A DNA stretch of 64,000 nucleotides, taken from assembly GCF_963676685.1 (NCBI RefSeq), contig NC_092345.1, positions 29,078,001-29,142,000 on the forward strand, given 5' to 3'. The position numbers were made by a program, and so were the translations under genes. This DNA comes from Mytilus edulis (Eukaryota). The notes beneath the pieces are model-generated. The model searched no databases and was not told where the DNA came from. It worked only from the letters and a program-made list of their open reading frames with translations. This document shows, piece after piece, positions 1,095 to 54,715 of this stretch (its first letter is position 1; the number at the start of each line of letters is the position of its first letter).

Positions 1095-1256
1095 TCTGCG
1101 CTTGCGTGGTTTATTATTCAGAATTAGGGTTAATTTCCGGTTCACGAATAATTCATTCTGAACATTGTACACGTGTCTTTCGAACAGATCGATTGTACAG
1201 TTTGAAATAAAAAAAAATAGATAGGGAAAAACATCGAATTTGTCGACTAAGTAAGT
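1095..1256 (+). promoter_or_regulatory. Putative promoter / non-coding first exon of B-box-SURF4 gene copy 1
   Basis: Block conserved with 26840-27011 and 27934-28105. It ends in a consensus donor GTAAGT at 1251. A matching acceptor (tttcttcag, 3731) lies 29 nt before the ATG. Confidence 0.55.
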
Positions 1257-3120: not shown

Positions 3121-3760
3121 GACCATGGCACATTAACGTTTCCAGCATAATTTAAAAAGTGACTTTTACAAATGTTGACCTGTCCAATCACTGTTCATTA
3201 TGTTTAGTTGAATTTATGTTGTTTTTATCGTCAATATAAATATAAATTATGCTGTTGTTGTTCTCCTCTATTGATGACAAGAATCAAAGTGGATTAACTT
3301 TTTGATAATACATCTTGTATGAAAAAATGTCATGTAATAACCTGATATTATTCAGTAAGAACGAAATTAATGTTAAGTATAAAAGTGAAACAAGACGTAT
3401 AACTACTTAGCAGGTGAAAGATAAGATGAACTGAGGGAGCGGTCAAAGTGTTTATTTTGTCTATGGAGATAGTTGTCTTAATGAAATCAAGACACATGGT
3501 CTAGTTTTTAGAATAAACATGAAAAATAATTTTTTTTATTTATTTTTTTATTTGATATATTTGTTTCGTTTTTGACTACACGAATTCTGTTAGACCAGAC
3601 CTAATTTTAGAAACGTCGTTTAGGTGAGTTCAAAGTTCTAGGAATTATAAAATTGTAATGAAAATGTACACTAAAAATTTGCATAAACATTTACTCAATT
3701 GATTAATCATTTAATTTTATTCTTTCTTCAGAATAAAGAAGTATCCTCCACTAAAACAAT

Positions 3761-4672
3761 ATGTGTACTCCGTGTACGTTTCGAAATGAACAAGTGACGC
3801 CTATTAATTGGTGCATAGTTTGTAAAGACGGACTTTGCAAGCATTGCAGTAACTATCATAAATCGTCAAAATCTTTAAAGCGGCACGACCTTATTCCTTT
3901 TAAGGATCGTCGATCGCTACCTGAATTTGCACAATCTATTCAGGATACATGTTTTGAACACAAACGACAGTTTGAGTTTTTCTGCAGTGTACATCAGGAC
4001 TTTCATTGCATCAAATGCAATACTTTAGATCATATGACCTGTAATAGTGTTTTGCCACTCGAAGATGTTGTTAGAAATGCAAAGTCATCTGTAGCTTTTT
4101 GTCATATTGAAGACGGCTTGCATGTTCTGCTTTCAAAATTTGAAACAATTTTGAATAAATCAGAAGAGTCGATAACAAACAATGCAGCACATATAAACCA
4201 TATCAGAAATAATGTTAATCAAATTAAGAACAGGATAAACAAGACATTGGAAGAAGCAATTGGTGAATTTCTAAGCAAATTGGACAAGTCTAAGTCTGAT
4301 AGCAAAACAAAAGCACAGGAAAAAATAAGAGGTCTCAAGGAAAAACTCAATATCATTCTAGGCTTAAAGGCAAGCGTTGCACTTTTGAAAGAAAACGGAA
4401 CAGACTTACAAATTTACTTATGTCTTAAACACCTTGAGTCGAATTTAACAAAGGAAGACAATAATCTTAGTGCAGACATACATAATGGCCATTATGATTG
4501 TGAAGAATTAATGTTCCGTCCTTCAGAGGCCATGAATACATTTAAATTGGTTGGTAGTATTGGTGAAATCGAAGTCCAGCAGAAACCTTTGAAAGTCAAC
4601 TCAGGAGGCATGGGTCAGAGTGTAAAAGTGGTTCAAAGCCCAAAAGAATCAATGTCATACAAAACTGATCAG
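3761..4672 (+). CDS. TRIM-like B-box1/B-box2/coiled-coil coding exon (no RING), copy 1; unspliced ORF continues to 4699
   Basis: CxxC...CxxCxxxxCxxCxxxH...H (CTPC...CIVCKDGLCKHCSNYH...RH) and CxxH...CxxH...CxxC...H (CFEH...CSVH...CIKC...DH), followed by a long heptad-rich helix. In-frame TAA at 3734 upstream of the ATG. Phase-0 donor CAG|GTATTA at 4672/4673. Confidence 0.9.
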
Positions 4673-4964
4673 GTATTAGGAGTAATAGTGAAGAAATAAG
4701 TATAAAATTAGAAGACGTGATTTTGTTGTTAAAAGTAATAAATTATAACTACTTGAAGTTTCAGAGAACCAGTTAATACAAGATTCATTTGTAACATATA
4801 ATAAATCATAAATCAAGATTCAAAATATCAATCAGTGAACCACACCATCAATTTAGAGTCTATTATTTATAAAGACGTGTGAAAATCCCGAAAAAAAGGA
4901 ATATGAATAGACGTCAAAACGTCACCATGATGTTAAAGGTTGTTTAGGACCATATTAAATCTAA

Positions 4965-5235
4965 AAAAAAATGAGAATGGAAATTGGGAATGTGTCAAAG
5001 AGACATCCACCCGACCAAAGAGCAAACAACAGCCGATGTCAACCAATAGGTCTTCAATACAGCGAGAAACTCCCAAACCGGGAGGCGTACTTCAGCTGGC
5101 CTCTTAACAAAAATGTATCCTAGTTCAGTGATAATGGACGTCTTACTAAACTCCGAAATGTACACATGAAACTAAAATTTAAAATCATACAAGACTAACA
5201 AAGGCCAGAGGTTCCTGACACAAGACAGCCGCAAC
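4965..5235 (-). mobile_element. Dispersed repeat family B fragment (probable retroelement 3' end)
   Basis: gagaatggaaat(t)gggaatgtgtcaaagagaca... is shared with 23597-24305 and 59066-59985. Confidence 0.7.
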
Positions 5236-5389
5236 AACATTTTGCGGCTAAAACGACTTTTAGCCATGTATTCTACCACGGGGACAATAAACAGTAACTA
5301 CAAAAAGTTAAGACTAATATTCTTTGTTTCTGTCAATGCCCTGTTTATCAATTAAATGAAATACCAAATATTACATTATTTTTTTACAG

Positions 5390-5653
5390 GTTATACATAA
5401 ATACCGGCCATATTTAGCGGTTGTGGCTAGACTTTGTATAATCAGTGTTTTTCTGCACGACTGTATGGTAAGCTCCGGAATTCCATATCATAGATATTAT
5501 CGACGTTTTGAAGTATTAAGATTGGATCATGATCTAGTGGACATTTTCGTAAAACTGACGATTTCTGGACAAATGGTGGGATGCATTATGGTTCTTCTTC
5601 GACGAAAGATTAAAAGTGGATGTGGGATAATATTATTGATAAAAATATCTCAG
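5390..5653 (+). CDS. SURF4: SURF4/Erv29-like exon (N-terminal membrane part), copy 1
   Basis: tttttacag|VIHKYRPYLAVVARLCIISVFLHD...GQMVGCIMVLLRR...ISQ|gtaat, 264 nt, phase 0-0. Resembles SURF4 'YLPHVARLCLISTFLED...GQLxGCVLVLxR'. Confidence 0.85.
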
Positions 5654-7389
5654 GTAATAGATTTTTTTCTGTTCTCTTGTTTAAGTTTTAATTCATGCAG
5701 TTAAAATTAATATCATTTATGTAAACTTATCAGTAAAACAAGATCTTAAATTAAGTCAATTTACAAATTTGTCAACAACTGATGATAGGAGTTATGGTTT
5801 ACCCTTTAATTTCGATTTTTATCCATTGTTTCATTTCGATTTAACATTTTACAAAAAGAAACACAAACTGTAAACACCCACCAGAAATTATCAATAAGAT
5901 AAGATAAAGAAACATATCAGATTGCTGATATTGTCCATTTACCTTTATGTGAGTAATGGCCTTAAATGATGAATTTAAACCAGCTTTTCAATTTTTGTTA
6001 AAAGTATCAAACAAGATCAACACGTTGTCATTAGATTCCTTAAGCTGTCATTTGTCCATGTTGTCTACTTACATCGTCTATAAGAGACTTTCAACTTCTT
6101 TTCTTACTTTTTCTGTATGAATCATGTAATGTATCCAACTTTTAAGTTCCAGTACAACATTCATAAATGCTGAATATTTTAAGATAGATCAAAATTTACA
6201 CTACAGCCCATACTGCGGTCAATGTACATTTGGTATATAAAGTTGTACATTGACTGATAGTTATCGAACATCGGTATACTACTGTTGCCTTTATTTTTTT
6301 ATAATTGTGTAAAGTACTTTGCTTAATAAATGTGAATTATTTTCTGTGTTTGCTTTGACCAGTATTGCAAGTACATCAAGGAGCTAAAGTCTTGGTGTAC
6401 TCTTAGTTCAATTTTGCCTTATACGGAAGTTTTGATTAAATACCCTGAAAAGACCACTAACATACCATTCAAAAGCTTTATACCCAGCTCCATACAAAAA
6501 AAACAACCCCAACCATAATGTTTCATTTTATTAGATCTGTGTTTTAATTACTTGTGAAGTTCACAAAATGTCATTATTAATCACTCTGCAAAAATCCATG
6601 TAACCCTAACATCATGATGGTTTCTTTACCAAAACGTACAGCCAAAACTGAAGTAGAAAATGTGACATAGATGAAAAAATTATATTAGGTATAACCAAAC
6701 TTTGCATTTTGAAGATTAAAGTAACAATTTGGAATATCAAAAAGTAATTATTAAACATTGCATTCCAATAAGAAACATTTCAACACTAGTATCATAGATG
6801 AAGGGTATATAATCATGAACAATTACCTAGTAGTGTTTTAATGAAAGAAGCGTAATGAATTATGTAAGAATAAATGAATATCTTTATACGATCAGGTTTT
6901 CGAGTATAAACATATTTGAAAAATGCTTATTTACAACTTGATCTACAATTTAACATGAGAAACACAGCTAAAAAAATACTCTATGTCAAATGAAGGTAGT
7001 TTAGATTGTTCATATGATTTTACACACTATAAGAAGAAATATGTGCATAATGTGATATAAATGGGGATAATTTTATGCTTCTCATTGATATCATAACTCT
7101 GAAGTTTAGTTTTTATTGTTTCTTTCAATCTGAACACAAAACTGATGTTTTATCATATACACCATGCTTCCTCCCTAAGTAAACTTAGAGATCCTGGATA
7201 GCCGTCGTTAAACATAGAAATTTGTATAAAACTACTTTAACTGGTTCCAAAAAGATTCCATTGCATAAATATTTACAGGCAATGAGTTTTGTGATTATTG
7301 TACTGCCTTGAACAAGTACAGTGACAGAGTGCATATTTTCCTTTACGGTTAAATTCTGTAAAAAATTCGTAAGGGTTCCATGGAACCCA

Positions 7390-8062
7390 GTGTCTCGCCT
7401 TCTTTTGAAGTTTATCCCAGGCAAAAAGAAGGGAAAAAATCAATAAAACTATTCCTCTTGATACTATCTTTTGATTGTCCAAGTTTGGTAAAATTCCAGG
7501 ATAGTTTATGAATGTAATAAATGTTTTAAAAACTTCAACTGCAGACTGTATGTAATGTGTAACTGTAAGATAAACTAAGTCCATTTATAAGTAAAATACA
7601 GATACACAGGTAAAAAAATTTAAGAAAATTTCCTTCTAGATACTAGCTTTTGATCACAAACAAGCTTCTGTCCAAGTTTTGTACAAATCCCAAAAGAAAA
7701 AAAGTGTATAAGAAAGTTATAAATTTTTTTTAAACTTTAACCATAGAGTGAATGTGTTGTTTCCTGGCAGAAAATCTAAGTCCAGTTGAAAATAAAATAC
7801 GGAAAAGAATTTTAAATTTACTTCAGGATACTATATAATGATCATAAACAAGCTTCTGTCCAAGTATGGTAGAAATCATGTATAGTTTAAGAAAGTTATC
7901 AAAATTTCAATTTGTAACCACACAGTGAATATTTGTGGACGCCGGCGACGACAACGCCGACGCCGACGATGAGAACGCCGACGCCGACGATGACAACGCC
8001 GACGCCGACTGAATGTGAAATTGCTATATCTTGCTTTTTCGTCTAGAGTCGAAACTCGACAA
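7390..8062. mobile_element. Helentron-associated (HINE/DINE-like) non-autonomous element
   Basis: Three diverged ~190-bp core repeats (..tgtccaagtt.. at ~7476, 7669 and 7857), a (GCCGAC/GAC)n microsatellite at 7938-8010, and a short terminal hairpin gtcga..tcgac followed by an A-run. Confidence 0.55.
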
Positions 8063-9612
8063 AAATCTACCATGGACTTATTACTAATCTATATCTTGAA
8101 TACCTGATTTACCTTTAGAAATTGGAATCTTTCATATAACATACATAAAAGTACAAATGTAGCCCTATCTTTTGAGAAAATAAAAACTTAGGGTCATGCG
8201 GTATTTTTGGGCATTCACTACATGGTCTTGTTTACAAACACTGTAGATTCAAACTTTATTCCTTTACTGACCCAAATTTCTTTTCAATCCTGTAGTAAAA
8301 ACAATTAGTACATTCAGCATTCTTTTTTACAATTTGTTTTTACTCTAGTGTTGATCCATCTATCAAAAAATATTTATTACAAACATTATCTACCAATCAG
8401 AAGGGCACAGGACTTCAGTTTTATACAGCTGTCCCCCAATGTGCGGTCCCTGATGACGTTAATTGCTTTACTGAATTTACCAAAGTAGACTCCTTAAAAA
8501 CCAGTTTACTCCTAAAATTACTATTAATGGCTAATTGTTTTAAGTTTATATATTTTCTATTAATTCTAATATATTGATCGAATCAATTTTAATTGTGGTT
8601 TCCTAAAAATTATTCACTTGATCATAATATGATTTTTTTTAATTTGATATCACAGATTCAGCTTAGTCTATCTCTTATATATACATATCAAAATTGTATT
8701 GAATAAAGCCGTTTTCAAATGAAGTTTACAGTTTGTTATTATTTTATGCATTTTCTTAGGTTAAGTTGGATTAGTGCACGTACAAACATATTAACACCAC
8801 ATCATTATGTTTCCTTTACATGTACCTATTTTCTAGTCAGCAGCCTGTAATTCGGCGGTTTTTATCTTTCATATTTTCTTTGCGTTTAATGTTCTGTACA
8901 TAAAAAGTAAAATCACAAAAAAACTGAACTCCTAGGAAAATCCAAAAAGGAAAGTCCTTAATCAAATGGCAAAATAAAATGCTTAAACACAAATAACTAA
9001 TTGATAACAACTGTCATATTCTTGAATTGGTACAGGCATTTTCTTACGTAGAAAATTGTGGATTTTACCTGATTTTTAAAGCTAGCTAAACCTCTCTCTT
9101 GTATGACAGTCGCATCATGAACCATGAAATAAACAACTATGTGGGAACACCACAAACAGACACAATAGGTATAAATGTAAAAAATAAGGTTACAATAGTC
9201 AACATTGTGTTAAAATCCGTCGTTTAAATGTTCTACATTTTGTATTGCCAGGGCATTTTATAGCTCACTGTAGGTTATGGGTGTTGATCATTTTGAGGAC
9301 CGTACGATGACCTGTTGTTGTTGGTATTGGACATACCTGATATAGTGTATTCCTTAAATGTAGTTAGTGCACACTGATTTCGATCTATTTATACTATATT
9401 GAATTAACACACTTTTATAATGTAATTTAAATTGTATATATATGGCCATTCTTCTAAATTTCTGACAATTGTCGGTCTAAATCATTTCCATTATTAAACA
9501 TGTAAAAATATTATCTGTTTTCATCTAATTGTATCGGACCTAATGCATTTTTAATATTTGAAGTTTTTAGAAAAGATTGAATACCAAATCAAATATGATC
9601 CTTTTGTTTCAG

Positions 9613-9653
9613 ATATATCTACCGCCATTCCCGCCCCAGCAAACGCTTGCAAG
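9613..9653 (+). CDS. SURF4: 41-nt SURF4-like microexon (IYLPPFPPQQTLAR), copy 1
   Basis: cttttgtttcag|...AAG|gtgagg, phase 0 to 2. Same length and conserved acceptor flank as the paralogous exon at 33894-33934. Confidence 0.75.
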
Positions 9654-10074
9654 GTGAGGCTTCTACATTTCATAAAGTTTCTCAAATATTTGTGATAATG
9701 TACAACTATAGACTCTGCAATAAAACATTTCGTGTCTTGTTTGGACACTGTTGGTAGACTCTTTGAGAGGGAAACTTATTTCGTTATAAAAAAAAGTTAT
9801 TAAAAAAATCTTGTGTATAGTTGTATTTTTTAAAAGTTTAATCATTTGTTTGTTTCGAGAACCCACAATTACACACATATAAGATACACAATAAGAACTT
9901 TGATCATTTTTATATGATGAACCAAACATTGATTGCTAAAGATCGTATGACAAATTTCACCGACCCGAATATGTGTTTAATTTAAGGAGTTCGAAAGTCT
10001 ATGAAACATAGTTTAAAAAGACATATTTAACAAATACAGCTATTTTCGCAATTAAGTACACTAATTACCAAATG

Positions 10075-10320
10075 AAAGATTGATCGACTAATCGGTGTTA
10101 AACGGCACTTGTAACACTTTTTTGCTATTTCCTAGCGGTTAACAATATTTGTTGTAGGATGCTGGAATGTCTGGATTGTGAAACCGACCTTCGGTAGAAA
10201 AACAAAACAATCCTAGTCATCTCATGTAAGAGTCAAGCTGCGAGATACAGGAAACTCACAACCTAAATGCTAGTGATGCAGTAAATCGATTACTTAGATC
10301 ACCTGGTCAACGAGTCCCGT
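10075..10320 (-). mobile_element. Degenerate tRNA-derived SINE
   Basis: Colinear with the better-preserved copy at 60275-60540. Confidence 0.55.
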
Positions 10321-10872
10321 TGAAACCAAATGAACTCCTATGAGGCGATACATAACTTACACTTTACCTTTGATAACTATTTACACTTTACTTAAACTGC
10401 GCTCTCAATCAAAATACTCTTTTTTATGAACCTCATCAAAAGGAAATAATGACATATAACTTGTTTGCCTGGTTGACTTGAAATTTTATGAATTTTAGTA
10501 GAAAGAGTAATAAGCTTAGTTTTTCGCTAATTCTTTTGTTTTTAATGAGGTTGTTAGTTTTCTCAATTGAATTATTTCATATTTTTCATGTCGTACCCTT
10601 TTATAGCCGGTGATAATGTATAGTTCGTTTGCCTTTAATTGCTTCTATCCACTTCATTTGAACTTGAGGATAGATGTTTTATTTGCCATCATTTCATATC
10701 TCCTTGCGTTTGTAATTATTTACTTGTACATTTGTGCCTTTTATATGGAAGAGTATTTGTATATACGCTCAGAGAAGTTAAAAGTTTGCTTAATGTACAT
10801 AATGAATGGTTTAATGGATTACGATAGAAGAAACCTTTCATTACAATTTGTGCTTTATTCATTTATTTGTAG

Positions 10873-11463
10873 GATGATATATGTTATATTTGTTATTCTC
10901 GTGGGATTTTGTCTATATGTGTTACATTTTAGTGTTATGTCGTTGTTCTCCTCTTATATTTAATGCGTTTCCCTCGGTTTTAGTTTGTTATCCCGATTTT
11001 GTTTTTTGTCCATGGATTTATGAGTTTTGAACAGCGGTATACTACTGTTGCCTTTATTTCTATATGTGGAATAGTATTGATGGCATACGCAGATAGCAAA
11101 GAAGGAAAGAGTTTGTTTGCTAGCGCGTCATCAACTTTATCTGCGAAAAACTGGAAAACGAAAAGTTTAGGAAAGATTCTGCTACTTTTGATGTATCTTC
11201 CATTGTTTGTTGAACATGTAGACTCATCTAGTTGGATACGACTTACTTTTGGTCTATGTCTCATTGTGAGCAACACAGTTGGCTATAGGATCAATATTTC
11301 CGCTTCTCTTATGATAGTTTGGTTACTGTTTGGAAATTTACCCTTCGCCGGTCAGAGAAGTTACTTTCCGGAAGATGTGCAATACTGCTTATTTATCAAC
11401 ACATTAGTGATCATAGGAGGATTATTATTGATGCTAGCATATGGGTCTGAAAATACCGACTGA
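10873..11463 (+). pseudogene. SURF4: SURF4-like terminal exon, copy 1, interrupted by a ~179-bp repeat insertion
   Basis: Acceptor tttgtag at 10872, then G ATG, the insertion, then ISICGIVLMAYADSKEGKSLFAS...LGKILLLLMY...GYR...IIGGLLLMLAYG, which matches SURF4 'AESRSEGKSMFAG...GRVLLVLMF...IGFKT...VIGGLLLVVALG'. Confidence 0.8.
10877..11055 (+). mobile_element. Short interspersed repeat fragment inserted in the SURF4-like exon
   Basis: Absent from the paralogous exon (38861). Its 3' end aacagcggtatactactgttgcctttat recurs at ~1336 and ~6270, and inverted at ~31942. Confidence 0.8.
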
Positions 11464-11626
11464 AAAAAATAAAAATTGTTAACTGCTTTATAACTTTATT
11501 TCTAATTATTTATTTACAAAAAACCTGAACGCAAAGGGTGTATGAAATGACAAAAAAAAATCTTAAACTTTGCTTTATTGAGTTTTCAATAGTTTCCAAA
11601 ATTTTCACAATATTTTTACACCTCAA

Positions 11627-11982
11627 ATAAACTTATCATAGATACCAGTATTAAGTTTTATATTTACGCCAGACGCAAGTTTCGTCTAAAAAAAGACCCA
11701 TCAGTGATGCTTGAATCCCAAAAAAGTTAAAAAGGCCTAAAAGAAGGTACGAAGTTGAAGGGCATTGAGGACCAAAATCCCTAAAAGTTTTGCCAAATAC
11801 AGCTAAGGTAATCTATTCCTGAGGTGGAAAAGCCTTAGTAATTAAAAAAAAAACAAACGTTTTGTTAACAGTTTATTAATAAATATGACCATATCAATGA
11901 TAATTTATGTCAGCACAGTGCTGACTCCTAGACTGGCGATACCCTCGGGAAATTAAAACTCCATCAGCAGTAGCATCGACAC
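11627..11982 (-). mobile_element. ~350-nt retrozyme/Penelope-type repeat with a mutated hammerhead core at 11666-11710
   Basis: The minus strand reads gcatcaCTGATGGgtct...agacGAAActtgcGTCtggcgt. Homologous to 25742-25985 and 33690-33780. Confidence 0.65.
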
Positions 11983-16284: not shown

Positions 16285-17845
16285 GCCGTCACATGGTTCT
16301 CAAACCTTGCCGAATGTTCTGACCTCCGGCGAACGGTGGCTCACTTACGACAGGGGATCAGACCCTCCAAGAAACTCACAAACATAAAGGACATACAGCG
16401 GTACCTGAATGTAACTTCGTTAGCTAACGATGGACTATTATTTAGTAAAAAGAAACCTTCTGTTTACACCTTGTCGTGAATTAATAATTGTACCGCGGCA
16501 AGTATTAGATGGATTAATTACTTCAATTCACATTAAATTAGACCATCCGTCGTGTCACCAGATGAAGTCTATATTACAATGATAGTTACTTTTACGCATT
16601 AGACATGGACAAGGCTATCGAATCTGTAACTAGTAGCTGTCATCTGTGTGCTTCATTGTTGAAGACCCCAAAGGTTCGCGAAGAGCAGAATTCAGCAGAT
16701 CCCCCTGTAACTATTGGTTCATCATTTGCCGCAGATGTCTTAAAACGAGAGCGTCAGTTAGTTTTTGTTTTACGAGAATGTGTAACTTCTTGGACCTTTA
16801 CCAAACTGTTAGATACTGAGCGCCATCACGATTTACGAGATGCAATTATTCAACTTCTTGCTGAAGTCCACCCTCTAGACGGCCTTTATGCTGTTATTAG
16901 GACCGACCCCGCATCTGGTTTTAAAACTTTAGTAAAAGACGAACTGTTAGCTAGACAACGAATCACTATAGAATTAGGCCGTCCCAAAAATGCAAATAAA
17001 AACCCCGTTGCTGAGAAAGCTATTCAGGAACTAGAAGATGAAATACTTCGTTCGAACCCGTCAACCCCAGTATAAACACCATTAACGCTTTCACTTGTCA
17101 CAGCTCGACTGAATACACGTATTCGAAACCGAGGATTATCTGCACGAGAAATGTGGACACAGAGAGATCAGTTTTCAAATAACCAAATACCGCTCACCGA
17201 TCAAAACTTAAGTATTGCTCAACACGAACAACGATTAAAGAATCATCCACACAGCGAGAAGACAAAGTGTCCATCAGGCAAATTACCCGTGTGTCCGTAT
17301 CTAGAAATTGGTGACATAGTATATCTACGATGTGACCTCAACAAAACTAAGTCACGCGATAGATACCTAGTGGTAGCTGTTGATACTCCATGGTGCAATA
17401 TTCGTAAATTCATTGGATCACAATTAAGACAAAATTCCTATCGTGTGAAATGTTCAGATTGCTACAAAGTTTACTATGAAGTTTCGCAACTTGAAAACCG
17501 TCAACACCTACTGTCGCATTCCGATGACGACAACGATGAAAGAGTGACCGACAGCTCCTCACCTACATCTGTGCCGGTAATTCCTAAAGCTATATCCGAC
17601 CTTCCAACATTGCCGTCAGTAATACCGCATCACATTACCCAAATTAGAAAATGTTGAACATCCTCTTAGTACAAACAGTCCGGCATGAATTTAAGTAACG
17701 ATAACTTTGAAATGGACTTACCAGAGAAAAACATATATTGACTCTCAAGAAAATGAACAAAATTTCTGATCATCCGATTCAATTAGTCGACCGGATCGCC
17801 AGCGCTCACTTCCAAAGAAATTCAATGACTATGTTATGTACTGAA
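16285..17845 (+). pseudogene. Ty3/Gypsy pol 3' part (integrase), frameshifted
   Basis: SDLRRTVAHLRQG...; HHCC zinc finger (HIKLDHPS...CHLC); D,D(35)E core (AADVL...IRTDPA...NPVAEKAIQELE); GPY/F-like region (IGDIVYL...RDRYLV). Includes ORFs 16605-17075 and 17151-17657. Confidence 0.85.
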
Positions 17846-26231: not shown

Positions 26232-26806
26232 CTTGTTGTGATAAGCAAATATAAGGATGTAGTTTTTAAACATTATTCATTATTGGGTGTTTAGGTTTTT
26301 TGGTATTAACATGAATAGATTTCTGAACATCTTGCAATTTGTATAGTAAAAATATAAACTTTAATAGCAGAACATCTTGAACATAGAGGCGTTGCTCTCG
26401 CATCCTTAATTTGGTTTTAAACAAAGTATTAAATGTTCGTGTTTACCTTATCATGCATTATAATAAAAGTCAGTATGTAAGTGCACCAGCGACATTAATT
26501 ATCGAATATTTAGAGATGTTCTGACAGACTAGTGTCTTGCAAACATCTACAATAACAGGTGCGATTTGAAAGATTTGTAATACGTTTTTTTAGTTATCGA
26601 ATTTTTTGGATTTAGTAAATGGTCTCATCGTACATTTTTCTTCGATCATTGTTTTGCAAGACACTAACTAAATAACACTTCCAACTATTCCTAGTGTTCC
26701 ATTTTCTCAAACTTATTTTTGCGACATGCAAAACGTCGATAGAGTAATGAAGTGTTGAAAACAAAACTGTTGCCTTAATCAAATCACGGGTGAACTTTCT
26801 TAATCC

Positions 26807-28987
26807 ATCGATATTTATAAGACGTCTGTGTTAAAAAGTGAATCTGCGCTTGCGTCGTTTATTATCTAGAATTGTGGAAAATTTTCGGTTCATGTATAAC
26901 TCATTTTAAACATTGTGTATATATATATTTCGAACAGAACTGTTGTACAGGCTTTTTTCTCTTTTTTTTATATAAAAAGGAGAATACATCAAATTTGTCG
27001 ATTAGGTAAGTAACAAAAAACATTCGATGCTATATTTGCTGTCTAACTTTTTAACACAGGCTAATCGTTGTCAAAGACATCAATTTGTTCTATCCATGAA
27101 CTGTCATGACTATTAGTAAATGTAAGTTTTTTTTAGTGAATGACTTCTGATCTGAATAAAGACTTTTAGTCGGTAGTTTTCGTTAACCAGAAGTCAAACT
27201 AAGCTACAGATACATTCTCAAGTGTTTTGTTTATTTTCATTTAAACAAATTGACCTCTTATTATTTCTTTTCACCCACTTCATTTGTAATTCTTATCTTA
27301 TCGTTGTACTACTAGTCGATTACAATGTCAAGGTGAAATGTGTTAAATATGAACGAAGGCTATAAAATAACATTTCTAGAGGAACGAACGTTGTTAACCA
27401 TTTAAATGAAACAACGCGTATATCGGCTACTTTCAAGAATGCATGAAACATGTGAAATGAGGAGGCGGACAAAGCGAGTCTGCAAACATGTTAAATCCTC
27501 TCACATTATGTACTGGGTTATTCCTTATAGGAACCTGCTGTCGTTTATTACTGTATCATATTTGTTTTTCCTATACTAGTATTTTATTATTACATTGATA
27601 AGTCCTACAGTTTTCCCGTAAGAATTGTAGTAATTTTGTTATTTTAGGGAGCTTTTTTTTTTTTTTATCTCACTTTGCTAATTGTTGGAGGCCGCAAGGT
27701 GTCCGTTAAATGCTAAACTAAGTCAATTGATCTCTGAATCGCAATGGAGGATTATCTCATTGGAAATCATACAACATCTTTTTACTTTTATAAATAAGGT
27801 GAAAAATAAGCCTTTAAAATTTCTTTTTTATTTGATATATTTCTTTTGCTATTTAGAATACATATTCAGTTTAAACAAGGCTAAAATTTGAAAAGTTTTT
27901 ATCGATATTTATAAGACGTCTGTGTTAAAAAGTGAATCTGCGCTTGCGTCGTTTATTATCTAGAATTGTGGAAAATTTTCGGTTCATGTATAACTCATTT
28001 TAAACATTGTGTATATATATATTTCGAACAGAACTGTTGTACAGGCTTTTTTTTTTTTTTTTTATATAAAAAGGAGAATACATCAAATTTGTCGATTAGG
28101 TAAGTAACAAAAAACATTCGATGCTATATTTGCTGTCTAACTTTTTAACACAGGCTAATCGTTGTCAAAGACATCAATTTGTTCTATCCATGAACTGTCA
28201 TGACTATTAGTAAATGTAAGTTTTTTTTTAGTGAATGACTTCTGATCTGAATAAAGACTTTTAGTCGGTAGTTTTCGTTAACCAGAAGTCAAACTAAGCT
28301 ACAGATACATTCTCAAGTGTTTTGTTTATTTTCATTTAAACAAATTGACCTCTTATTATTTCTTTTCACCCACTTCATTTGTAATTCTTATCTAATCGTT
28401 GTACTACTAGTCGATTACAATGTCAAGGTGAAATGTGTTAAATATGAACGAAGGCTATAAAATAACATTTCTAGAGGAACGAACGTTGTTAACCATTTAA
28501 ATGAAACAACGCGTATATCGGCTACTTTCAAGAATGCATGAAACATGTGAAATGAGGAGGCGGACAAAGCGAGTCTGCAAACATGTTAAATCCTCTCACA
28601 TTATGTACTGGGTTATTCTTTATAGAAACCTGCTGTCGTTTATTACTGTATCATATTTGTTTTTCCTATGCTAGTATTTTATTATTACATTGATAAGTCC
28701 TATAGTTTTCCCGTAAGAATTGTAGTAATTTTGTTATTTTAGGGAGCCTTTTTTTTTTATCTTACTTTGCTAATTGTTGGAGGCCGCAAGGTGTCCGTTA
28801 AATGCTTACATAAGTCAATTGATCTCTGAATCGTAATGGAGGGTTATCTCATTGGAAATCATACAACATCTTTTACTTTTATAAATAAGGTTAAAAATAA
28901 GCCTTTAAACTTTCTTTTTTATTTGATATATTTCTTTTGCTATTTAGAATACATATTCAGTTTAAACAAGGCTAAAATTTGAAAAGT
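26807..28987 (+). repeat. Near-identical ~1.09-kb tandem duplication containing the putative first exon of gene copy 2
   Basis: Units 26807-27896 and 27901-28987, each with a donor AG|GTAAGT (27006, 28100). Confidence 0.95.
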
Positions 28988-29207
28988 ATATGAAATTAAT
29001 TCAGTCTCCCGTAAATCATTAAGTCGTGTCAATTAAGCCTAATAACCAACAACCATGATGATTATTTCTGCAGATATCATGTACAATTAATTAAAAAAAT
29101 CTTTAGAAATTCCCGAAATATATTATGTTGATTTAAAATGTATTCACGTTTACTGTAATCAATTCTATTCTTATTTAGAACAAAAAAGTATCAACCATCA
29201 AAACAGT

Positions 29208-30119
29208 ATGTGTACTCCGTGTAAGTTCAGAAATGAATCAATGCCACCTATCAATTGGTGTATAGATTGTGAAGAAGGACTCTGTAGGTACTGCTGTACC
29301 CATCATCAATCCTCAAAAGCTTTAAAGCGGCACGACCTTATTCCTTTTAGGGATCGTCGATCGCTACCTGAATTTGCGCAATCTATTCAGGATACATGTT
29401 TTGAACACAAACGACAGTTTGAGTTTTTCTGCTGTGTACATCAGGACTTTCACTGCATCAAATGCAATACTTTGGATCATAAGACATGTGATAGTGTTTT
29501 ACCACTGGAAGATGTTGTTCGAAACGCAAAGTCATCTGTAGCTTTTTGCCGTATTGAAGAAGGCTTGAATGTTCTACTTTCAAAATTAGAAACGATAACG
29601 AATAAATCAGAAGAGTCGATAATGAACAATGCAGCACACATAAACGATATAAGAAATAATGTTAATCAAATTAAGAACAGGATATACAAGACATTGGAAG
29701 AAGATATTGGAGAATTTCTTAGCAAATTGGACAAGTTAAAGTCTGATAGCAAATCAAAAGCACACAAAACAATAAGAGGTCTTAAGGAAAAACTCAATGT
29801 TATTCTAGACTTGAAGGTAAATGTTGCACTTTTGAAAGAAAACGGAACAGACTTACAAATTTATTTATGTCTAAAACACCTTGAATCGAATATAACAAAG
29901 GAAGAAAATGATCTAAGTGCAGACATAAATGATGGCCATTATGATAGTGAAGAATTAATTTTTCGTCCATCAGAGGCAATGAACACATTGAAATTGGTTG
30001 GTAGTATTGGTGAACTGGAAGTCCGGCATAAACCTTTAAAAGTCAACTCAGGAGGCATGGGTCAAAGTGTAAAAGTGGTCCAAAGCCCAAAAGAATCAAT
30101 GTCATACAAAACTGATCAG
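29208..30119 (+). CDS. TRIM-like B-box1/B-box2/coiled-coil coding exon (no RING), copy 2; unspliced ORF continues to 30146
   Basis: Colinear, same-length paralogue of 3761-4699 with all zinc ligands kept. Acceptor ttatttag at 29178, donor CAG|GTATTA at 30119/30120. Confidence 0.9.
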
Positions 30120-31617: not shown

Positions 31618-31881
31618 GTTATACACAAATACCTGCCATATTTAGCGGTTGTGGCCAGACTTTGTTTAATCAGTGTTTTTCTGCTTGATTGTATGGTAAG
31701 CTTAGATATACCATATCGTGAATATCTTCGACGTTTTGATCAATTAAGATTGGATCATCATCTGGTGGAAATTTTCGTAAAACTTACTTGTTTTGGACAG
31801 ATCGTGGGATGCCTTATAGTTCTTCTTCGACGAAAGATCAAAACTGGATGTGGGATTATATTATTTATTAAAATGTCTCAG
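31618..31881 (+). CDS. SURF4: SURF4/Erv29-like exon, copy 2
   Basis: tttttacag|VIHKYLPYLAVVARLCLISVFLLD...GQIVGCLIVLLRR...MSQ|gtatat, 264 nt, phase 0-0. Confidence 0.85.
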
Positions 31882-33893: not shown

Positions 33894-33934
33894 ATATATG
33901 TACTGCTGGACTTACCCAGCGTAACAATTGTCAG
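33894..33934 (+). CDS. SURF4: 41-nt SURF4-like microexon (IYVLLDLPSVTIVR), copy 2
   Basis: ctttttctttcag|...CAG|gtgagt, phase 0 to 2. Confidence 0.8.
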
Positions 33935-38860: not shown

Positions 38861-39291
38861 GATAATTTCTGTATTTGGAATAGTATTGATGGCATATGCA
38901 GATAACACAGGAGGGAAGAGTCTGTTTGCTAGTACTTCATCGACTTTATCAGCGGAAAACAGGAAAAAGAAATGTTTAGGAAATATTCTGTTACTTTTGA
39001 TGTATGTTCCACTGTTGTTTGAGATTGTAGACTCATCTAGTTGGATACGACTATCATTTGGTCTATGTCTCATTCTGAGCATTACTATTGGCTATAGGAT
39101 CAATATTTCTATTGATAGCTTGGTTACTGTTAGGCAATTTGCCCTTTGCTTGTCAGAGACATTACTATTACAACAGGTGGTACGAACATCTGAACTATTT
39201 TATTTTTATCAACACAATAGTGATCACAGGAGGATTGTTATTAATGCTAGCATATGGTTCTGAAAACATCGACTTAAAAAAGAAAACATAG
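38861..39291 (+). pseudogene. SURF4: SURF4-like terminal exon, copy 2, with an 8-nt frameshifting deletion at ~39110
   Basis: ttttttgcag|G IISVFGIVLMAYADNTGGKSLFAS...GYRINIS. The SURF4 frame resumes in ORF 39088-39291 (LIAWLLLGNL...GGLLLMLAYGSENIDLKKKT*), ending in a KKxx-type motif. Confidence 0.8.
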
Positions 39292-41078: not shown

Positions 41079-41142
41079 TCGCATATGTAAAAAATCTATA
41101 GTTATACAGAAAACGTAAACATTGTAAAATAAATCTAAAATT

Positions 41143-44100
41143 ATGTTAGACGAGGATCAAAAGATAGCTTTTGAGTTAGCAAATGGGCACAACCTTATTA
41201 TAAGTGGTCAGGCAGGAACAGGTAAATCCTTTCTTCTCAAATATATAGTAAAGGACCAGCGTGAAAAACAGAAGAATGTCGCTATTGTATGTTCAACGGG
41301 TATAGCATCCACTCTTTACAAAGAGTTGGGAGCCAAAACATTGCACAAATGGGCCGGGATAGAGAATGGGAGGCATCTTAATGAGGAAATTATACACCTT
41401 GTTCAATCAGATGAGCGTTTTATGTCTGTTAAACATAATATCCAAACAACAGATCTCCTTATTATTGATGAAGTGTCAATGCATGGTTAGTGCTAAAACA
41501 TTTAACAAAGTTGAGGTTCTATGCAGAAAAGTTAGAGATAATAATAAATACTTTGGAGGGATACAAGTAATTTTGTCGGATGACTTTTATCAATTACCCC
41601 CAGTTCCAAATAAAATTATTGGAGATTCTGGTAGCCACTGTTTTAAACTGCCATGGTTTGATGATTACTTCCCACACAAAGTACAATTAAATATAATTCA
41701 CAGGCAAAGTGAAACTGCATTGATTCAGTGTATTAATGCGCTTTAAAAGGGAGAAGTTTCCAATGAAAATGTAGCTTTTTTGAATTCCTGAGATCGTCCA
41801 TTGCCAAATGAGGACACAGCTGTTCATCTTTATGCTAGGAACTATGATGTGGATATATTTAATTATAATAAACTACAACAGTTGCAAGGGGACCTTAAAA
41901 CTTATAAATCTACTGATGTAGGATCTGATTTTTATTTGCGAAAGTATTTGGCACCAAAGAATTTGGGTCTAAAGGTTGGTTGTCATGTTATGTTTTGAGA
42001 AATTTAAGTGATACATTAGTAAATGGATTGTGTGGTACGGTCACTCAACTAAACTCAGATTCAGTTGATGTGAAATTTATTATTAGCAATAAGTTATCCA
42101 CAGTTACACTGAAACCTGTCGTGTTTACTACATATGATCCTGCAGATAAGGAATATCTTGCAAAAAGGACTCAAATACCGCTTAAGTTAGCTTATGCTAT
42201 AACTATTCATAAGGCGCAAGGCATGAGTTTAAAAAGGGTCGTTGTCAATTGCGAATACTGTTTCCAACCAGGACAAATAGGCGTGGCAGTAGGTAGGGCA
42301 GAACAAGTTGAGGGTCTGCGAGTTTGCAACTTTAAAAAATCAATGTGCCGAAAGCACCCTTCCCATGATTCAGATTTTTATAACAATTTTACATTAGGAA
42401 TTTTGAAGGATGATCTTTCATGCTGTAGACATGTTATAGAGAATAATGGAGAAAAAAAATGATGACTCTGATTCTGATGATGAAGATGATAATGATGACG
42501 ATGATGATAGTAATGATAATACATGTACATATGCCATTGATGATAATTTTAACTCTGATTCTGATTTCTCTGATAGTGAAATTGAAAAACTAGAAGTTCT
42601 TGATAGTTTCATTGAAACTAATGTTTTGACTAAAGATCAATCATCATCACAAGCTATTGATTCTGTTTTCAATGAATATGTTGGGTCACAATTAGAAAAT
42701 GATATGAAATCTTTCAAAATGACAATTTTAGAAAAAAAATTCTATTTTTGATGAGTGGTACCAATCACAGATATCAGTTATTGAAGATATTGGACTGATA
42801 AGTCTTCCGGAAGGAGAAAAAACTATACAGCTAAACAACAACACGATTTTTTTAATGAAATTTCATAAACATTTCAATTCAGAGGAGTATGTTAATAGTG
42901 TCAAGTCTACTATAAGTATGTATTCCAAAGATGAGGGTACATCTGCAATATATTATCAGTTTATGACAGCTGTTTTATTTTACTTGGAAAGGAGATTTTT
43001 TGAAGATTTACCTTCTCATTTAAATTTACAGGAGCCAGAATCAATTAAAAACATTCCCACATCTGATGAGTTGTCTTCCCCTGCAAGAGGAAAAATTAGA
43101 TATATTAGTGGCTATGTCCTAGCTAAATTAAAACATTCTTTGTTTGTTGTAGGATCAGAATCAAAATTAGCAAAGCTTCAAGATCAAATGAACATATTAT
43201 CTTCTCTTTGTTCCTCCTATGATGTCTTATTGAATTCTAGCATTGATCCAGAAAGTTTAGAAGAGACTAAAAGAAAACAGAATGAGCGTGAATGTTTAAC
43301 CAACATTACTGATGTAACTTTTGATTTCTTTAGTAAACTTGAAACTTTGTGTAGACAAAAACTTTCTCATATAAATCTTGTTGAGCATGGAAAAAATTTA
43401 TTCAGCTATGTCACAGATGAAATTTTGAATGACAAATGTTTATTTGATTTATGGGTTCAAACACTTACTAGTAATTACAACATCCAGTGTACATCCTCAG
43501 ACAATATTCATAATATTATTCACTCCATAACCCTTTCAAGTGAAAATTATATAGACATTTACAATTCAGCTGTGCATCTGTTTTTGAAGGTTTCTTTCAG
43601 TCAATTCAGAAGGGATTATTTAACTTTTCTCAAAAAAGAGAAAGGAAAGGCGCTTCGTAAGAAAGTATCAGAGAAATCAAAGAAGGTGGTGAAATCTTTT
43701 AATATATAGATATAGGAAGATGTGGTGTGAGTGCCAATGAGACAACTCTCCATACAAATAACAATTTAAAAAGTAAAACATTATAGGTTAAAGTACGGCC
43801 TTCAACACGGAGCCTTGGCTCACACCGAACAACAACCTATAAAGGGCCCCAAAATTACTAGTGTAAAACCATTCAAACGGGAAAACCAACGGTCTAATCT
43901 ATATAAACAAAACACGTATATATTACATAAACAAACGACAACTACTGTACATCAGATTCCTGACTTAGGACAGGTGCAAACATTTGCAGCGGGATTAAAC
44001 GTTTTAATGGATCCAAACCTTATCCCTTTTTCTGAAACAATAGCATAACATCACAACAAAGAAAAACATACGATAAAATATCAATTGGCAGACTTAACTC

Positions 44101-44779
44101 AATCAAAAATATGCAATTTTTGATTGAAGACAAGTCAAAGGACAAAGAAAGTTCACATTTGCGACTGAAATCAGAACTTATGCAGAATGAAAAGTTTCTT
44201 TCAGAAAATTCTTTCACTAAGAAAGAATTGCTTATGTTATGTCTTATGTACAATGTAAAAATTTCCACTCAAAAGCGAAAGGAAGAAATAAGTTCTGAAT
44301 TGGGTAAAGCAATATTAAAAAGTGATTGCATACCATATCCGGATAAAAGTGATGTTTCTGGAACAGGTGCTAAGCCAATTTCTAACATTATAGTTTCAGC
44401 AGCTCCTCAAACAATGGACTCAGAAGTTCCAGGCCCTAGTAATGTACATGTAGCCTCTACATCAACTGGTTCCTTGGCTTCAGAACTCTAACCTACAATT
44501 CAAAATAAAGATAAAATACAATCAAATAAAAGGAAAACTTCAAGGAGAGGTAAAGGAAAGGGGAAAGGGAAGAGTAGAAAGAAAAATATTCCTATATCTG
44601 ATGAATCTGATGACAAATGTACTGTGTGTAATAAGCCAGATATTGGAGATGAGGATTGGATATGTTGTGATGCTTGTACTTTATGGTACCACAGGGATTG
44701 TGCAAACTTACAAGATGATGAAATTTGGACTAGTCTTAGTGTAGAAGGTGCTGCCTTCACCTGTCCACTGTGCCAATAA
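41143..44779 (+). pseudogene. Transposon-encoded Pif1-family (SF1B) DNA helicase fused to an acidic tract, a helical domain, a SAP-like motif and a C-terminal PHD finger
   Basis: GQAGTGKS (I), STGIAS (Ia), TLHKWAG, LIIDEVSM (II), FGGIQVILSDDFYQLPPV (III), HRQ (IV), LKVGCHVM.LRNL...VNG, QIPLKLAYAITIHKAQGMSL (V), PGQIGVAVGR (VI). D/E tract at 42460-42600. PHD CTVC...WICCDAC..WYH..C...CPLC at 44618-44773. Broken by several frameshifts, stops and one insertion. Confidence 0.9.
43706..44107 (-). mobile_element. Repeat family C insertion disrupting the Pif1-PHD ORF
   Basis: Flanked by an AATAT duplication; removing it restores KSFN-MQFL in frame. Confidence 0.85.
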
Positions 44780-45127: not shown

Positions 45128-47529
45128 TCATTCTTCAAAATTAAACCATGATTGTACCTTTTTATTTGCCTTAACTGCTTGGTTCAATTGTGCTCCCTCT
45201 CCACCTCCTGCATTAGATTTGCGAGATATTGATGTCTGTCCAAGAATAACTGAATTAACTGAATGACAGTAACCTAGATATGCTGGATTAGTATTAGCCC
45301 CATTATGAAGTGTTCTCTGTTGGAAAAATATGTTCTCTATGACATCACTATTAACACGACTTGAAATTATTGATGCATTTGAACACTTGAGTTTATATAT
45401 ACACATTTCTTCAAATCCCGTAATAGAAGAAATTATATCTTCCCTAGTCTGATGTGATATAAGATGTTTTTCCTTATTTTTTATTTCAATGTTGTCTTTA
45501 ATCATTTTTTCCCACTCAATAAACCACTGTAAAACATCATTGTTTTGTTTAATCCTCTCATCGCTTATATCTGTTACAGGACGCGAGTCTTTGAAGTTTT
45601 GGATGAGCACGCTTGTTTGCTGTAGCAATTCTATGGTTTCATCAACATTTGTTCCAGCATCACCTAAGCTTGACTTGTAAAGTTTCATCAAATGTAACAT
45701 TTCATTATTTAAAACGTCCTCTGCTAAATGATTCCTCATTTTATTTTCTGATGTTAAGAACATGTGTTCTTGTGTCAGTTTATGATGAACTGGGAATGGG
45801 TTCGTTGAAATGTCCCATAGATAAGCCTGTTTAAAGTGAGTCCATTCTATAAAATTGTTCTTAAACTTTAACCTCCGTTTACTAAAAGCACCATCTCCTC
45901 TTTTAGAAATGTTATTCCTTATTTTCTTAATAATATGGCAAATGTCCTTGATAAAAAAAAAAAATTTTTGGCTGTCCTTGGGAGAAAAAATGTTTTAAAA
46001 AGAGCATGTGATTGCATTTACACTGTTAAAGTTTGGTAACAAAATTTTGAAAAGGTCTCTATTGCTTTGTGCCCCATCAGTACTGATATATTGAATTGTA
46101 AATCCAAATGCAGATAACATATTAACTGATTTCCATACAAGTAAGTAAAGTTCATGTCCTGATGCAGTATGAGAAGGAAAATGTGCAAATGGAAAACGGA
46201 AACCTGTAAATTCTAAGAAAACTAATTGAAGAACATGTGTAGCAAGAGTTCTTTCTTTTTTATTACTCTTTATTTGCTCAAATATAATTGACTCTGGTGA
46301 ACATTCAGTGAAACCAATCAGCTCTATATTGTGTTTACGCTTGCGAAATTGCAAATCTTGTTGAATAGACATTTCATCTATAATAAGTCCACCTTGATAT
46401 CCCTCAGGGGGTATACCTTTCATTGTTGCTTCATTTCCCATCCAATCTAACATATCACTATTAATGCCTGCCTCTTGATAAACAGAGTTTTTATAACGTC
46501 GAAGCAAGTTTTGGGATGGTAATATTATAAAATTGCTAATTCTCAATTCACTATAGCCCCTTGGACTCCTGCAGTACAAAGTTAAACACAACCGTATAAT
46601 TTCCTTGTTCCACCTCCGGCCATTTGGGTTCCTTTCTAATGCCATTTTTTGACTAAGTAGAAATGTCTGCATTTTCATAGAACAATCAGGGGAAATTTTT
46701 GTCAAAATGTCACTCAAATCATTATGATCAGTCTCACTTCATTATCATGTGTATTGTTGTCATTTAAGTTTATATCATTATTATTTTTTCATCTATGTCA
46801 CACTTTTGTTCTCTTGTTTGAATTTTTGTTTTCAATTTTTTACAGTTACCACAACACAAGGAGACAGCATTAGAGTTTTTGAATGGTAAAACCTTACAAC
46901 ACGTCTTGGCACGGAACCTTATTTGTTCAGAGTTCTCGTCACCTACAAGACACACTTGCTCTTCAAAATGAGGTAAATCTTGCTCAACACTGTTAACGCC
47001 ACTACAGTATCTAAGTTGTTTTATCAATTTAAATAGAGATTCAACTGAATTTATTGTCATTGAAAACTTTTCCTGAAGTCCTATCTTTTCAAGTCCAATT
47101 TCCCATCACTAGGAGAGAAATACCACCATCTGATTCTAATTGAATTTCAATCATTATTTTACTACCGTTTATAATTTCTCCTGTAAAATGTCCTATTTTC
47201 ATTGATGTTTGTGTTTTTGATATTACAAAATAGTCTTCAGGGAGAAGAGTTTGAATGTCAATAAATAATATACTAGGCTGACTGATTGCGTCCTGTTTCC
47301 ATGACAAACCATAGTATCTTTGGGTAGATTTACACCAGTTTTCCTTTGAGCGACCTGATTTTATTTTTACATTGTTGAAAACTTTTTTAATAACATTACC
47401 CACAGCAGAATTTGTTACTTCAAATTCACATTTTTTCTTAATTTCAATGAGATCAACAAATTCAGATTCGTTGCATGGTTGTAAATTTTCTACAACCCAA
47501 GTGAAAATGGGTGTTTTGTTCGTTGCCAT
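45128..47529 (-). pseudogene. P-element/THAP9-family transposase with an N-terminal RFX-like winged helix, frameshifted
   Basis: GRRWNKEIIRLCLTLYCRSPRGYSELR...LPS (P HTH region), IIDEMSI (D1), ISTDGAQSNR (D2), DICHIIKKIRNN (~45910-45947), KMRNHLAEDVL (insertion domain), NSDVIENIFFQQR...NTNP (E). Pieces are ORFs 47089-47529, 46770-47060, 45995-46717 and 45128-45763. Confidence 0.9.
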
Positions 47530-54200: not shown

Positions 54201-54715
54201 TTAATTCAGTTTTAATTCATCAGGTTCGGGTTGGGTTGATGGGTGTCGAAATTCAATTGATGTAGTATTTTTTTTTATCTTTAATAGTATATCGTAAACT
54301 GTTTGACTAAAAAATGTTGCATTGCTCTTCAAATATCAGGAACTGGTACGAAACCGAGGATAACATGTCTAAACGCCCAGTTATACGTTCCATTTATATT
54401 TTAAGATTTTTTATTTTCATCAAGATGAGTTTTAGCAGGATGTATTACTTCTGCTTCGTTATTGTCATTATCAGCATATTATAGTTTACTGCTCATAATA
54501 CTGATATTTAAGTGAAATATTGAGAACATACCACCTGTATAACCACAATAAAGTTCTTCATCATTATTTCACTAAGCATAACTATCAATAATAATATCAC
54601 AATTGTTGACATTGGATTCTATAGAGCTAGATCTTTTTTTATAACCAATAACGTTTATAACAATATAAATGACTGTCTGCTTGTCAGAATACGTTTGTAC
54701 ATAATAATAAGTTAA

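Follow-up and report, generated by a model that had tools for sequence, protein, structure and literature searches.

A transcribed gene in Mytilus edulis that joins a TRIM-like B-box/coiled-coil exon to diverged SURF4 exons

Can an exon for a tripartite-motif-like (TRIM-like) B-box/coiled-coil scaffold and a set of exons resembling SURF4, the cargo receptor of the endoplasmic reticulum (ER), belong to a single gene, and what would such a gene encode? The question is raised by a 64-kb stretch of Mytilus edulis DNA (contig NC_092345.1; G000:C2:29078001-29142000 in the 1.37-Gb genome), referred to here as the window, in which a gene with four coding exons is present as two tandem copies. A sequence-only reading of this DNA had proposed that in each copy the B-box exon is spliced to SURF4 exons, giving a chimeric protein. 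The evidence assembled below indicates that the chimeric transcript almost certainly exists. An account of the protein is also offered, together with its rivals.

Copy 1 lies on the plus strand. Its first coding exon (3732..4672, ATG at 3761), covered by contigs from three sequencing runs, carries a B-box/coiled-coil open reading frame (ORF) at 3761-4699. It encodes B-box 1 (residues 2-42), B-box 2 (64-94), a coiled coil (about 111-212) and, C-terminal of the latter, a hairpin and a linker. The fusion intron (4673..5389, GT-AG, phase 0) contains eight leftover codons and a high-copy repeat at about 4967-5237. It is followed by the equivalents of SURF4 exon 2 (5390..5653; phase 0; 264 nucleotides (nt), the length found in intact SURF4) and exon 3 (9613..9653; 41 nt vs. 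44 in SURF4; phase 0-2). The acceptor and first 4 nt of the last exon (10873..10876) align with the copy 2 acceptor at 38861. Next comes a repeat insertion of ~179 bp that is absent from copy 2 (10877..11055, no strand assigned, ends uncertain by about 4 nt), and then the remainder of the last exon (11056..11463), equivalent to SURF4 exon 4 and covered by a contig, record 7 of run X1, that reaches 11551. The Pfam SURF4 profile matches the exon at 5390-5653 over positions 14-101 (expectation value, E, of 3.2e-10) and the last exon over positions 118-255 (E 1.4e-10). Both sides of the proposed join, the phase-0 GT donor after ...YKTDQ at 4672 and the phase-0 SURF4 exon at 5390, were found where the sequence-only reading had placed them.

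The same layout had been claimed for copy 2, and it was recovered, likewise on the plus strand. The first coding exon (29179..30119, ATG at 29208, coding part 29208-30119) encodes B-box, B-box and coiled coil and is 85% identical to that of copy 1. It is followed by the equivalents of SURF4 exon 2 (31618..31881, Pfam SURF4 E 2.6e-10) and exon 3 (33894..33934, 41 nt with AG/GT bounds and an open frame), and by the last exon (38861..39291). The joined model equals the database protein XP_071153425.1 (539 residues), which together with XP_071153424.1 (406 residues) is identical to joined window exons; both are M. edulis entries named 'uncharacterized'. The two copies had also been said to agree in the 30 residues that precede the donor and to differ in five of the eight that follow it, and this stood (dN, the nonsynonymous divergence, is 0; 5/8). 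These 30 codons (4583-4672 and 30030-30119) are identical at the protein level, yet they are modelled as a disordered linker; constraint, gene conversion or chance may account for this.

Is the join real at the RNA level? Four sequencing runs were compared against positions 3401-11800, X1, X2 and X18 as contigs and X23 as raw reads; they were taken as RNA on the guess of the tool used, none being recorded as RNA and X18 having no kind on record. The junction 4672^5390, on which the proposed fusion hinges, is present at ~99% identity in contigs of three of the four runs (X1, X2 and X18, from three studies and two organism codes). The contig breakpoint is given as 4669|5387, which equals 4672^5390 since CAG ends both sides. 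Depth in the bin 4521-4800 equals the 148-149 bases of the junction contigs, so no contig reads on into the fusion intron, and the exon 2 pieces listed at the junction have the B-box exon before them. Record 17 of X2 spans all four coding exons, passing from 5649 to 11056 with 49 letters between, and the spacer predicted from exon 3 and the four last-exon bases is likewise 49. In the bin 9561-9840, the depth amounts to 46 bases of the last-exon contig in each of the three runs, that is, exon 3 (41) plus five shared flanking letters. The exact skipping from GT to AG, together with zero depth in the unique non-exon bins 3401-3680 and 9281-9560, favours spliced RNA. As for the two further junctions proposed, 5653^9613 and 9653^10873, record 17 of X2 bears out the joining of all exons, but the contigs resume at 11056, as from an allele without the insert.

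The sequence-only reading also expected one continuous frame of 540-550 residues, which the window copies do not possess. With junction 9653^10873, the frame of copy 1 stops at 435 residues, near 10961, because the ~179-bp high-copy repeat begins 4 nt into the last exon; three further copies of this repeat lie in the window, and its read depth is in the thousands. An in-frame cryptic acceptor at 11025 inside the insert, which would give 551 residues, was considered and is unsupported, the gene contigs beginning at 11056. In copy 2, a deletion of 8 nt near 39107 shifts the frame, which then stops at 39263 and no longer encodes the final ~50 residues. Intact alleles are nevertheless indicated. 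The last-exon contigs of copy 1 start at 11056-11057 in all three runs and so derive from an allele without the insert, which encodes 542 residues free of internal stops; the M. edulis database model P0012 likewise joins exon 3 directly to the ~11056 point. Record 7 of X1 covers the stop at 11461 with one unlisted difference in 496 letters, so that this stop is likely present in the transcript too. Record 14 of X18 is copy-2-like: over 284 letters it shows 40 differences from copy 1 and no gap, and genomic copy 2 differs from copy 1 over the same span by exactly 40 letters plus the 8-nt gap. The equal count in a gapless record points to a copy 2 allele without the deletion. Record 2 of X1 is copy-2-like in the first coding exon. 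Elsewhere in the genome, a broken copy of the SURF4 exons 2-4 of the chimera lies on a 29-kb unplaced contig (G000:C344:2645-6771); it is closest to the C-terminal copy of the Mytilus coruscus protein P0001 and to the Mytilus californianus model, and the B-box exon was not found in the first 20 kb of that contig.

Where did the two halves come from? An intact SURF4 gene (G000:C2:9224868-9232096, minus strand, 270 residues, 269 of them identical in the M. californianus protein) lies ~20 Mb from the chimera on the same contig. Its coding exons measure 51, 264 and 44 nt plus a last exon in phase 2, and its first intron follows ...ADQ, a position that the sequence-only reading had given for SURF4 of vertebrates and that holds for the mussel's own gene. 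The coding exons of the chimera measure 912, 264 and 41 nt plus a phase-2 last exon. All three intron positions are as in SURF4, which means that the copy was made as DNA and not by retroposition. The closest B-box loci after the two copies, among 130 scored genome matches, are three at C2:9.13-9.19 Mb (E 9e-61 to 1e-54; the next is at 2e-34). They are single open frames of 572-586 codons that share the strand of the intact SURF4 and lie 40-90 kb downstream of it; a fourth, degenerate gene stands between them. In a tree of 27 rows (the top 25 loci minus two without a parsed ORF, plus four database proteins), these neighbours of SURF4 are sister to the chimeras with support of 100/99. The model of an orthologue of the neighbour genes (mean predicted local distance difference test score, pLDDT, of 88.8) shows B-box, B-box, coiled coil, linker and, from residue 314, a propeller, the best matches of which include NHL domains: Brat (template modelling score, TM, of 0.73 by target) and, by profile, TRIM2/3/71. 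The first exon of the chimera is collinear with the neighbour genes up to its donor, which falls at the first propeller strand.

We infer from these alignments a domain swap between neighbours, in which the NHL-like propeller was replaced by SURF4 exons 2-4. A DNA duplication of the SURF4/B-box neighbourhood would have placed the 5' half of a B-box gene before SURF4 exon 2, a donor in phase 0, located where the propeller begins, would have removed both the propeller and SURF4 exon 1, and the chimeric unit, now 20 Mb from its parents, would have been duplicated once more. The origin of the donor is a matter of leaning. There are 14 identical nt around the donor of the chimera and that of SURF4 intron 1; the eight leftover codons give a slightly higher score with the B-box parents than with the SURF4 intron, and other chimeric paralogues have DE, not DQ, at the donor. 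We lean towards a newly arisen donor rather than that of SURF4 intron 1. At the DNA level, no similarity of the chimera to the parent region was found beyond patches of 20-30 nt. Two unnamed ENA proteins of B-box-propeller type, P0141 and P0288, are 42% identical to the B-box half of the chimera, closer than the SURF4 neighbours, and may represent the orthologue of the B-box donor gene in a related animal. Head to head with the intact SURF4 stands an exon-like ORF (G000:C2:9238631-9242404) that may be TADA1-like; its end is repeated many times as a tandem array.

Database models with the join are labelled M. edulis, M. coruscus and M. californianus; they are automatic predictions and not independent proof of splicing. 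In M. coruscus, CAC5370551.1 has the join with exon 2 missing and CAC5418446.1 merges two copies, and the M. californianus model XP_052092465.1 (193 residues) begins in the tail of the B-box exon. The named chimeric matches were all from Mytilus, in one search (3 of 1602 candidates), in another (7 of 751) and again in a look-up of 10 protein clusters (best 150 of 1812 listed, 46 scanned with Pfam); these searches have limited sensitivity, and unnamed records are unplaceable. A metagenome scan yielded 99 pattern matches, none of which was confirmed, and a protein atlas returned B-box clusters only (best score 0.75). The ratio of nonsynonymous to synonymous substitution rates (dN/dS) between copies 1 and 2 is 0.28 in exon 1 (p 1.6e-8) and 0.55 in the SURF4 part (p 0.011; 0.59 and p 0.16 for exon 2 alone), ratios that speak for purifying selection in both. 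Exon 3 is the segment of greatest divergence between the copies, with ~13 replacement changes and a dN/dS of about 1.2 on 13 codons (p 1). The SURF4 half is 36% identical to the mussel's own SURF4 (85/234), and bivalve SURF4 orthologues are 85-87% identical.

What does the N-terminal half look like? The joined protein had been expected to match both the SURF4 and the zf-B_box profiles; SURF4 scores above its cut-off, whereas the B-box profile reaches only 12.6 and 17.4 bits in the two copies (cut-off 24.1). It does exceed the cut-off in the paralogue P0006 and in two of the three SURF4-neighbour genes. The first exon contains two Cys/His clusters, in keeping with the one or two B-boxes of TRIM proteins. 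In the model of copy 2, the B-boxes have pLDDT above 90 and give weak Foldseek matches to the B-box/coiled coil of TRIM28 and TRIM5 (E 2e-3 to 1e-2). B-boxes and coiled coil together are mostly above 85, the coiled coil is a 100-residue helix, and residues 289-306 form a disordered linker. Neither the N-terminal RING that defines TRIM proteins nor the RING plus membrane anchor of class C-XI is found: an in-frame stop lies three codons before the ATG, the 13.7 kb upstream hold no RING-like pattern, and Pfam detects no RING. A chimera of this kind would need a partner for any ubiquitination. A homodimer prediction for residues 1-290 gave an antiparallel arrangement with a score of 0.65 vs. 0.00 for the best control (pLDDT 78); the runs agree in at least 87% of contacts, and residue 120 pairs with 199-206. 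With the same tool, 21 of 30 solved pairs from microbes and 17 of 29 from eukaryotes attain its mark, and none of the single chains does so (0 of 23 and 0 of 30, respectively). TRIM dimers being already solved, the result shows likeness rather than binding. For the coiled coil the prediction is thus an antiparallel dimer like that of TRIM proteins, and the earlier suggestion of a self-assembling B-box protein finds support at the level of prediction.

The C-terminal half matches PF02077 (cut-off 27) with 40.5 and 41.7 bits for single exons and 64.9 bits for the database protein P0016. Conservation was judged on the 110 columns that are invariant among 22 canonical SURF4 proteins. Copy 1 keeps 3 of 25 such residues in lumenal segments vs. 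37 of 73 in membrane and cytosolic segments (p 0.0008), with 2 of 10 in the tail and 1 of 2 in the exon 1 segment; the alignment of the lumenal loops is uncertain. According to the mutagenesis in PMC11557686, human SURF4 binds cargo through lumenal residues 39-40, 49-59, 108-116 and 232-238, SEC24A through the Phe-loop, where the mutant replaced six residues, and SEC24C through the tail. By this comparison the lumenal ER-ESCAPE cargo pocket and the lumenal helix appear to be lost in the chimera. KSLFA of the Phe-loop (GKSLF) is kept in all seven aligned chimeric rows, with the residues after it changed. A KKxx tail is present in the original frame of copy 2 (ending at 39291) and in four of six database C-termini (P0001, P0002, P0144 and P0298, but not P0003 and P0216). 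In copy 1 it does not occur: the stop TGA (11461-11463) falls immediately ahead of the ancestral KKxx codons, and the protein ends in ...ENTD. None of the chimeric C-termini checked has the DE motif or the terminal W, so the combination of KKxx, DE and terminal hydrophobic motif characteristic of SURF4 is not found. Retrieval of STING by SURF4 in mouse and human cells needs the lysine tail, as reported in PMC7782846, and copy 1 is without it. A sequence search found no solved relative of SURF4, and Foldseek gave no match for the membrane part of the model; its top entry, a Toxoplasma ring protein with a TM of 0.13, was disregarded.

What, then, might the protein do? The most probable reading, held at about even odds, is that intact alleles encode an ER-Golgi-anchored, dimeric, RING-less B-box scaffold in which the SURF4 bundle serves as anchor and trafficking handle. 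The SURF4 termini are cytosolic and eight helices are predicted (PMC9929512), which would place the B-boxes and coiled coil on the cytosolic side. The antiparallel coiled-coil dimer would pair two membrane bundles and leave the B-boxes free for higher-order contacts, and the chimera would cluster membrane partners rather than carry the usual SURF4 cargo. The kept phenylalanine for the coat protein complex II (COPII) and the KKxx of most paralogues would allow cycling between ER and Golgi; copy 1, lacking KKxx, would drift to the Golgi.

Several observations count against this anchored scaffold. The contig depth is low (6-12), and in the raw-read RNA run X23, of which 6% was read, hardly any reads fall on the exons. 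None of the three genomic copies is intact: the two in the window are disabled, and the third, on G000:C344, is broken. Copy 1 keeps only 43 of the 110 invariant SURF4 residues. Strongly hydrophobic windows number four in copy 1 and six in copy 2 as compared to nine in SURF4, and their scarcity in copy 1 makes a complete bundle of eight helices harder to claim. Confidence in the modelled membrane part spans pLDDT 30-76; its helical pattern fits, and the copy 2 that was modelled is frameshifted after ~492. The B-box tree carries a long-branch warning and covers the top 25 loci only, with two dropped. In the tree of the SURF4 half, the chimera sits on a very long branch that joins Mytilus SURF4 with a support of no more than 35/63. 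The proposal of a spliced chimera in which a TRIM-like gene has its C-terminal domain swapped is supported; the lesions in the last exon of both window copies, the missing RING, the nature of the replaced propeller and the loss of the cargo pocket had escaped the sequence-only reading.

One rival denies the chimera: a separate B-box gene of 312 residues and a neighbouring SURF4-like gene, misjoined or linked by occasional read-through. The database proteins P0004, P0005, P0018 and P0020 do end eight residues past the donor, but they match the unspliced genomic frame, and the junction recurs in other species. Given also the contig evidence described above, in which no contig of three runs enters the intron and exon 2 pieces at the junction follow the B-box exon, the reading as two genes is largely refuted and scarcely credible. 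Another alternative is a trans-membrane sensor in the manner of TRIMCyp, with remodelled lumenal loops that bind a foreign or misfolded ligand and cytosolic B-box clustering that leads to defence or ER-phagy. The paralogues indeed differ most in the lumenal loops, e.g., 12/33 identical vs. 99/122 elsewhere, with p < 0.002 in all six comparisons. The ~13 replacement changes in the 13 codons of exon 3 would suit such a sensor, the swap replaces the recognition propeller exactly, and the turnover of copies resembles that of mussel defence families (PMC7653742). However, the dN/dS of exon 3 is indistinguishable from neutral, relaxed constraint also makes loops diverge, their alignment is uncertain, and the chimera has no RING. 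In its full form this alternative would make SURF4 a receptor that diversifies, faces the lumen, is coupled across the membrane to a TRIM-type B-box lattice in the cytosol and reads the contents of the secretory pathway, born of two neighbouring genes and subject to birth-and-death turnover with null alleles in populations. We regard it as unlikely, and of the two roles that had been suggested, sensor or anchor, that of anchor is better supported.

An equally doubtful possibility is a decaying or marginal gene family, formerly constrained, now often null and serving no needed function today. Damage in three of the three copies found in this genome, the truncation of the M. californianus model at 193 residues, the departure of P0012 from frame in the last exon, the low contig depth and the loss of KKxx from copy 1 all fit decay. 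They have to be set against contigs that indicate lesion-free alleles of both copies, the dN/dS of 0.28 and 0.55, the persistence of the structure in three species and the fact that hemizygous and dispensable genes are common in mussels, as PMC7653742 reports. Still more improbable, in our estimation, is a re-specified cargo receptor that carries mussel-specific lumenal cargo and uses the coiled coil to multiply coat-binding avidity. Such a receptor would explain the GKSLF phenylalanine in 7/7 chimeric rows and the KKxx tails noted above, and with another local alignment the D, F and Y of the HDFLKY pocket may be retained in one line of paralogues. Against it stand the loss of the DE motif, of the terminal hydrophobic residue and of most residues of the pocket, and the lack of conservation in the loops, which paralogues sharing a new cargo would need to show.

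The rest of the window adds some context to the two copies. Upstream of copy 1 lies a candidate non-coding first exon (1100..1250, start approximate, plus strand) with a GTAAGT donor after 1250; a donor of this type is conserved upstream of both copies, and one contig has 24 additional 5' letters ahead of 3729. The region upstream of copy 2 contains a tandem duplication of ~1.09 kb (26800..28980, limits approximate, plus strand) with candidate first-exon donors at 27005 and 28099. The duplicated units are near-identical and cover the putative promoter and first exon of copy 2. Between the copies, at 16566-17654 (plus strand), there are broken integrase-like ORFs with no Pfam match; a database model that absorbs them carries the name 'Integrase catalytic domain'. 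Downstream are a PIF1-like helicase with a frameshift and, after it, ORFs of unknown nature and a PHD finger (41128-44779, plus strand), probably a transposon remnant; a remnant of a P-element/THAP9-like transposase with TNP-like RNase H and GTP-binding domains (45128-46738, minus strand); and a retroelement remnant with RNase H (52790-54205, minus strand).

SURF4 is a slow-evolving housekeeping receptor, and here a transcribed, fast-diverging copy of it sits on a TRIM-like scaffold. Since both parents can be seen, along with the domain border and the introns that were kept, the birth of a gene by fusion of neighbours can be followed here with unusual clarity. It can also be viewed as a natural experiment on SURF4, in which membrane and cytosolic residues are kept and the cargo pocket mapped in the human protein is dropped. 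The C-terminal repertoire of TRIM-like proteins gains a multi-pass anchor, the known membrane anchors being those of TRIM13 and TRIM59. The architecture is already contained in automatic database models, unnamed and partly wrong. The assertion that no protein of this design had been described agrees with our survey: a SURF4 fused to a B-box/TRIM-like scaffold was not found in the literature searched, subscription journals and most supplements lying outside it.

With which known systems should the chimera be compared? It shares with SURF4/Erv29 (PF02077) the profile match, three intron positions, a predicted helical layout, the GKSLF residues of the loop and, in most paralogues, KKxx; unlike SURF4, it has 304 residues of B-box/coiled coil in place of exon 1 and no lumenal pocket, DE motif or terminal hydrophobic residue. 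Its N-terminal 300 residues are collinear with molluscan RING-less genes of B-box/B-box/coiled-coil/NHL-like type (named 'TRIM25-like' automatically in RefSeq). Over these residues it is 33-36% identical to the three SURF4-neighbour B-box genes, with an acceptor just upstream of the ATG in both, but it carries a multi-pass membrane domain on three further exons where they have a propeller. TRIM13 and TRIM59 (class C-XI) resemble it in holding a B-box and coiled coil on the ER by a C-terminal membrane anchor (PMC7479839). These two proteins possess a RING, E3 ubiquitin ligase activity and a simple transmembrane region, whereas the chimera lacks a RING and has a whole bundle derived from SURF4, trafficking signals included. 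TRIMCyp places a housekeeping-gene domain behind a B-box/coiled-coil scaffold as well; it arose by retrotransposition, its new domain is soluble, and its RING is kept. The mussel chimera shows the same principle of a new housekeeping-gene C-terminal domain on such a scaffold, but its introns are retained, as from a DNA-level event, its parents are neighbours, its new domain is polytopic and a RING is absent. It belongs neither with TRIMCyp nor with the membrane-anchored TRIM13/59 group, and it departs from SURF4 in two of the features that define that family.

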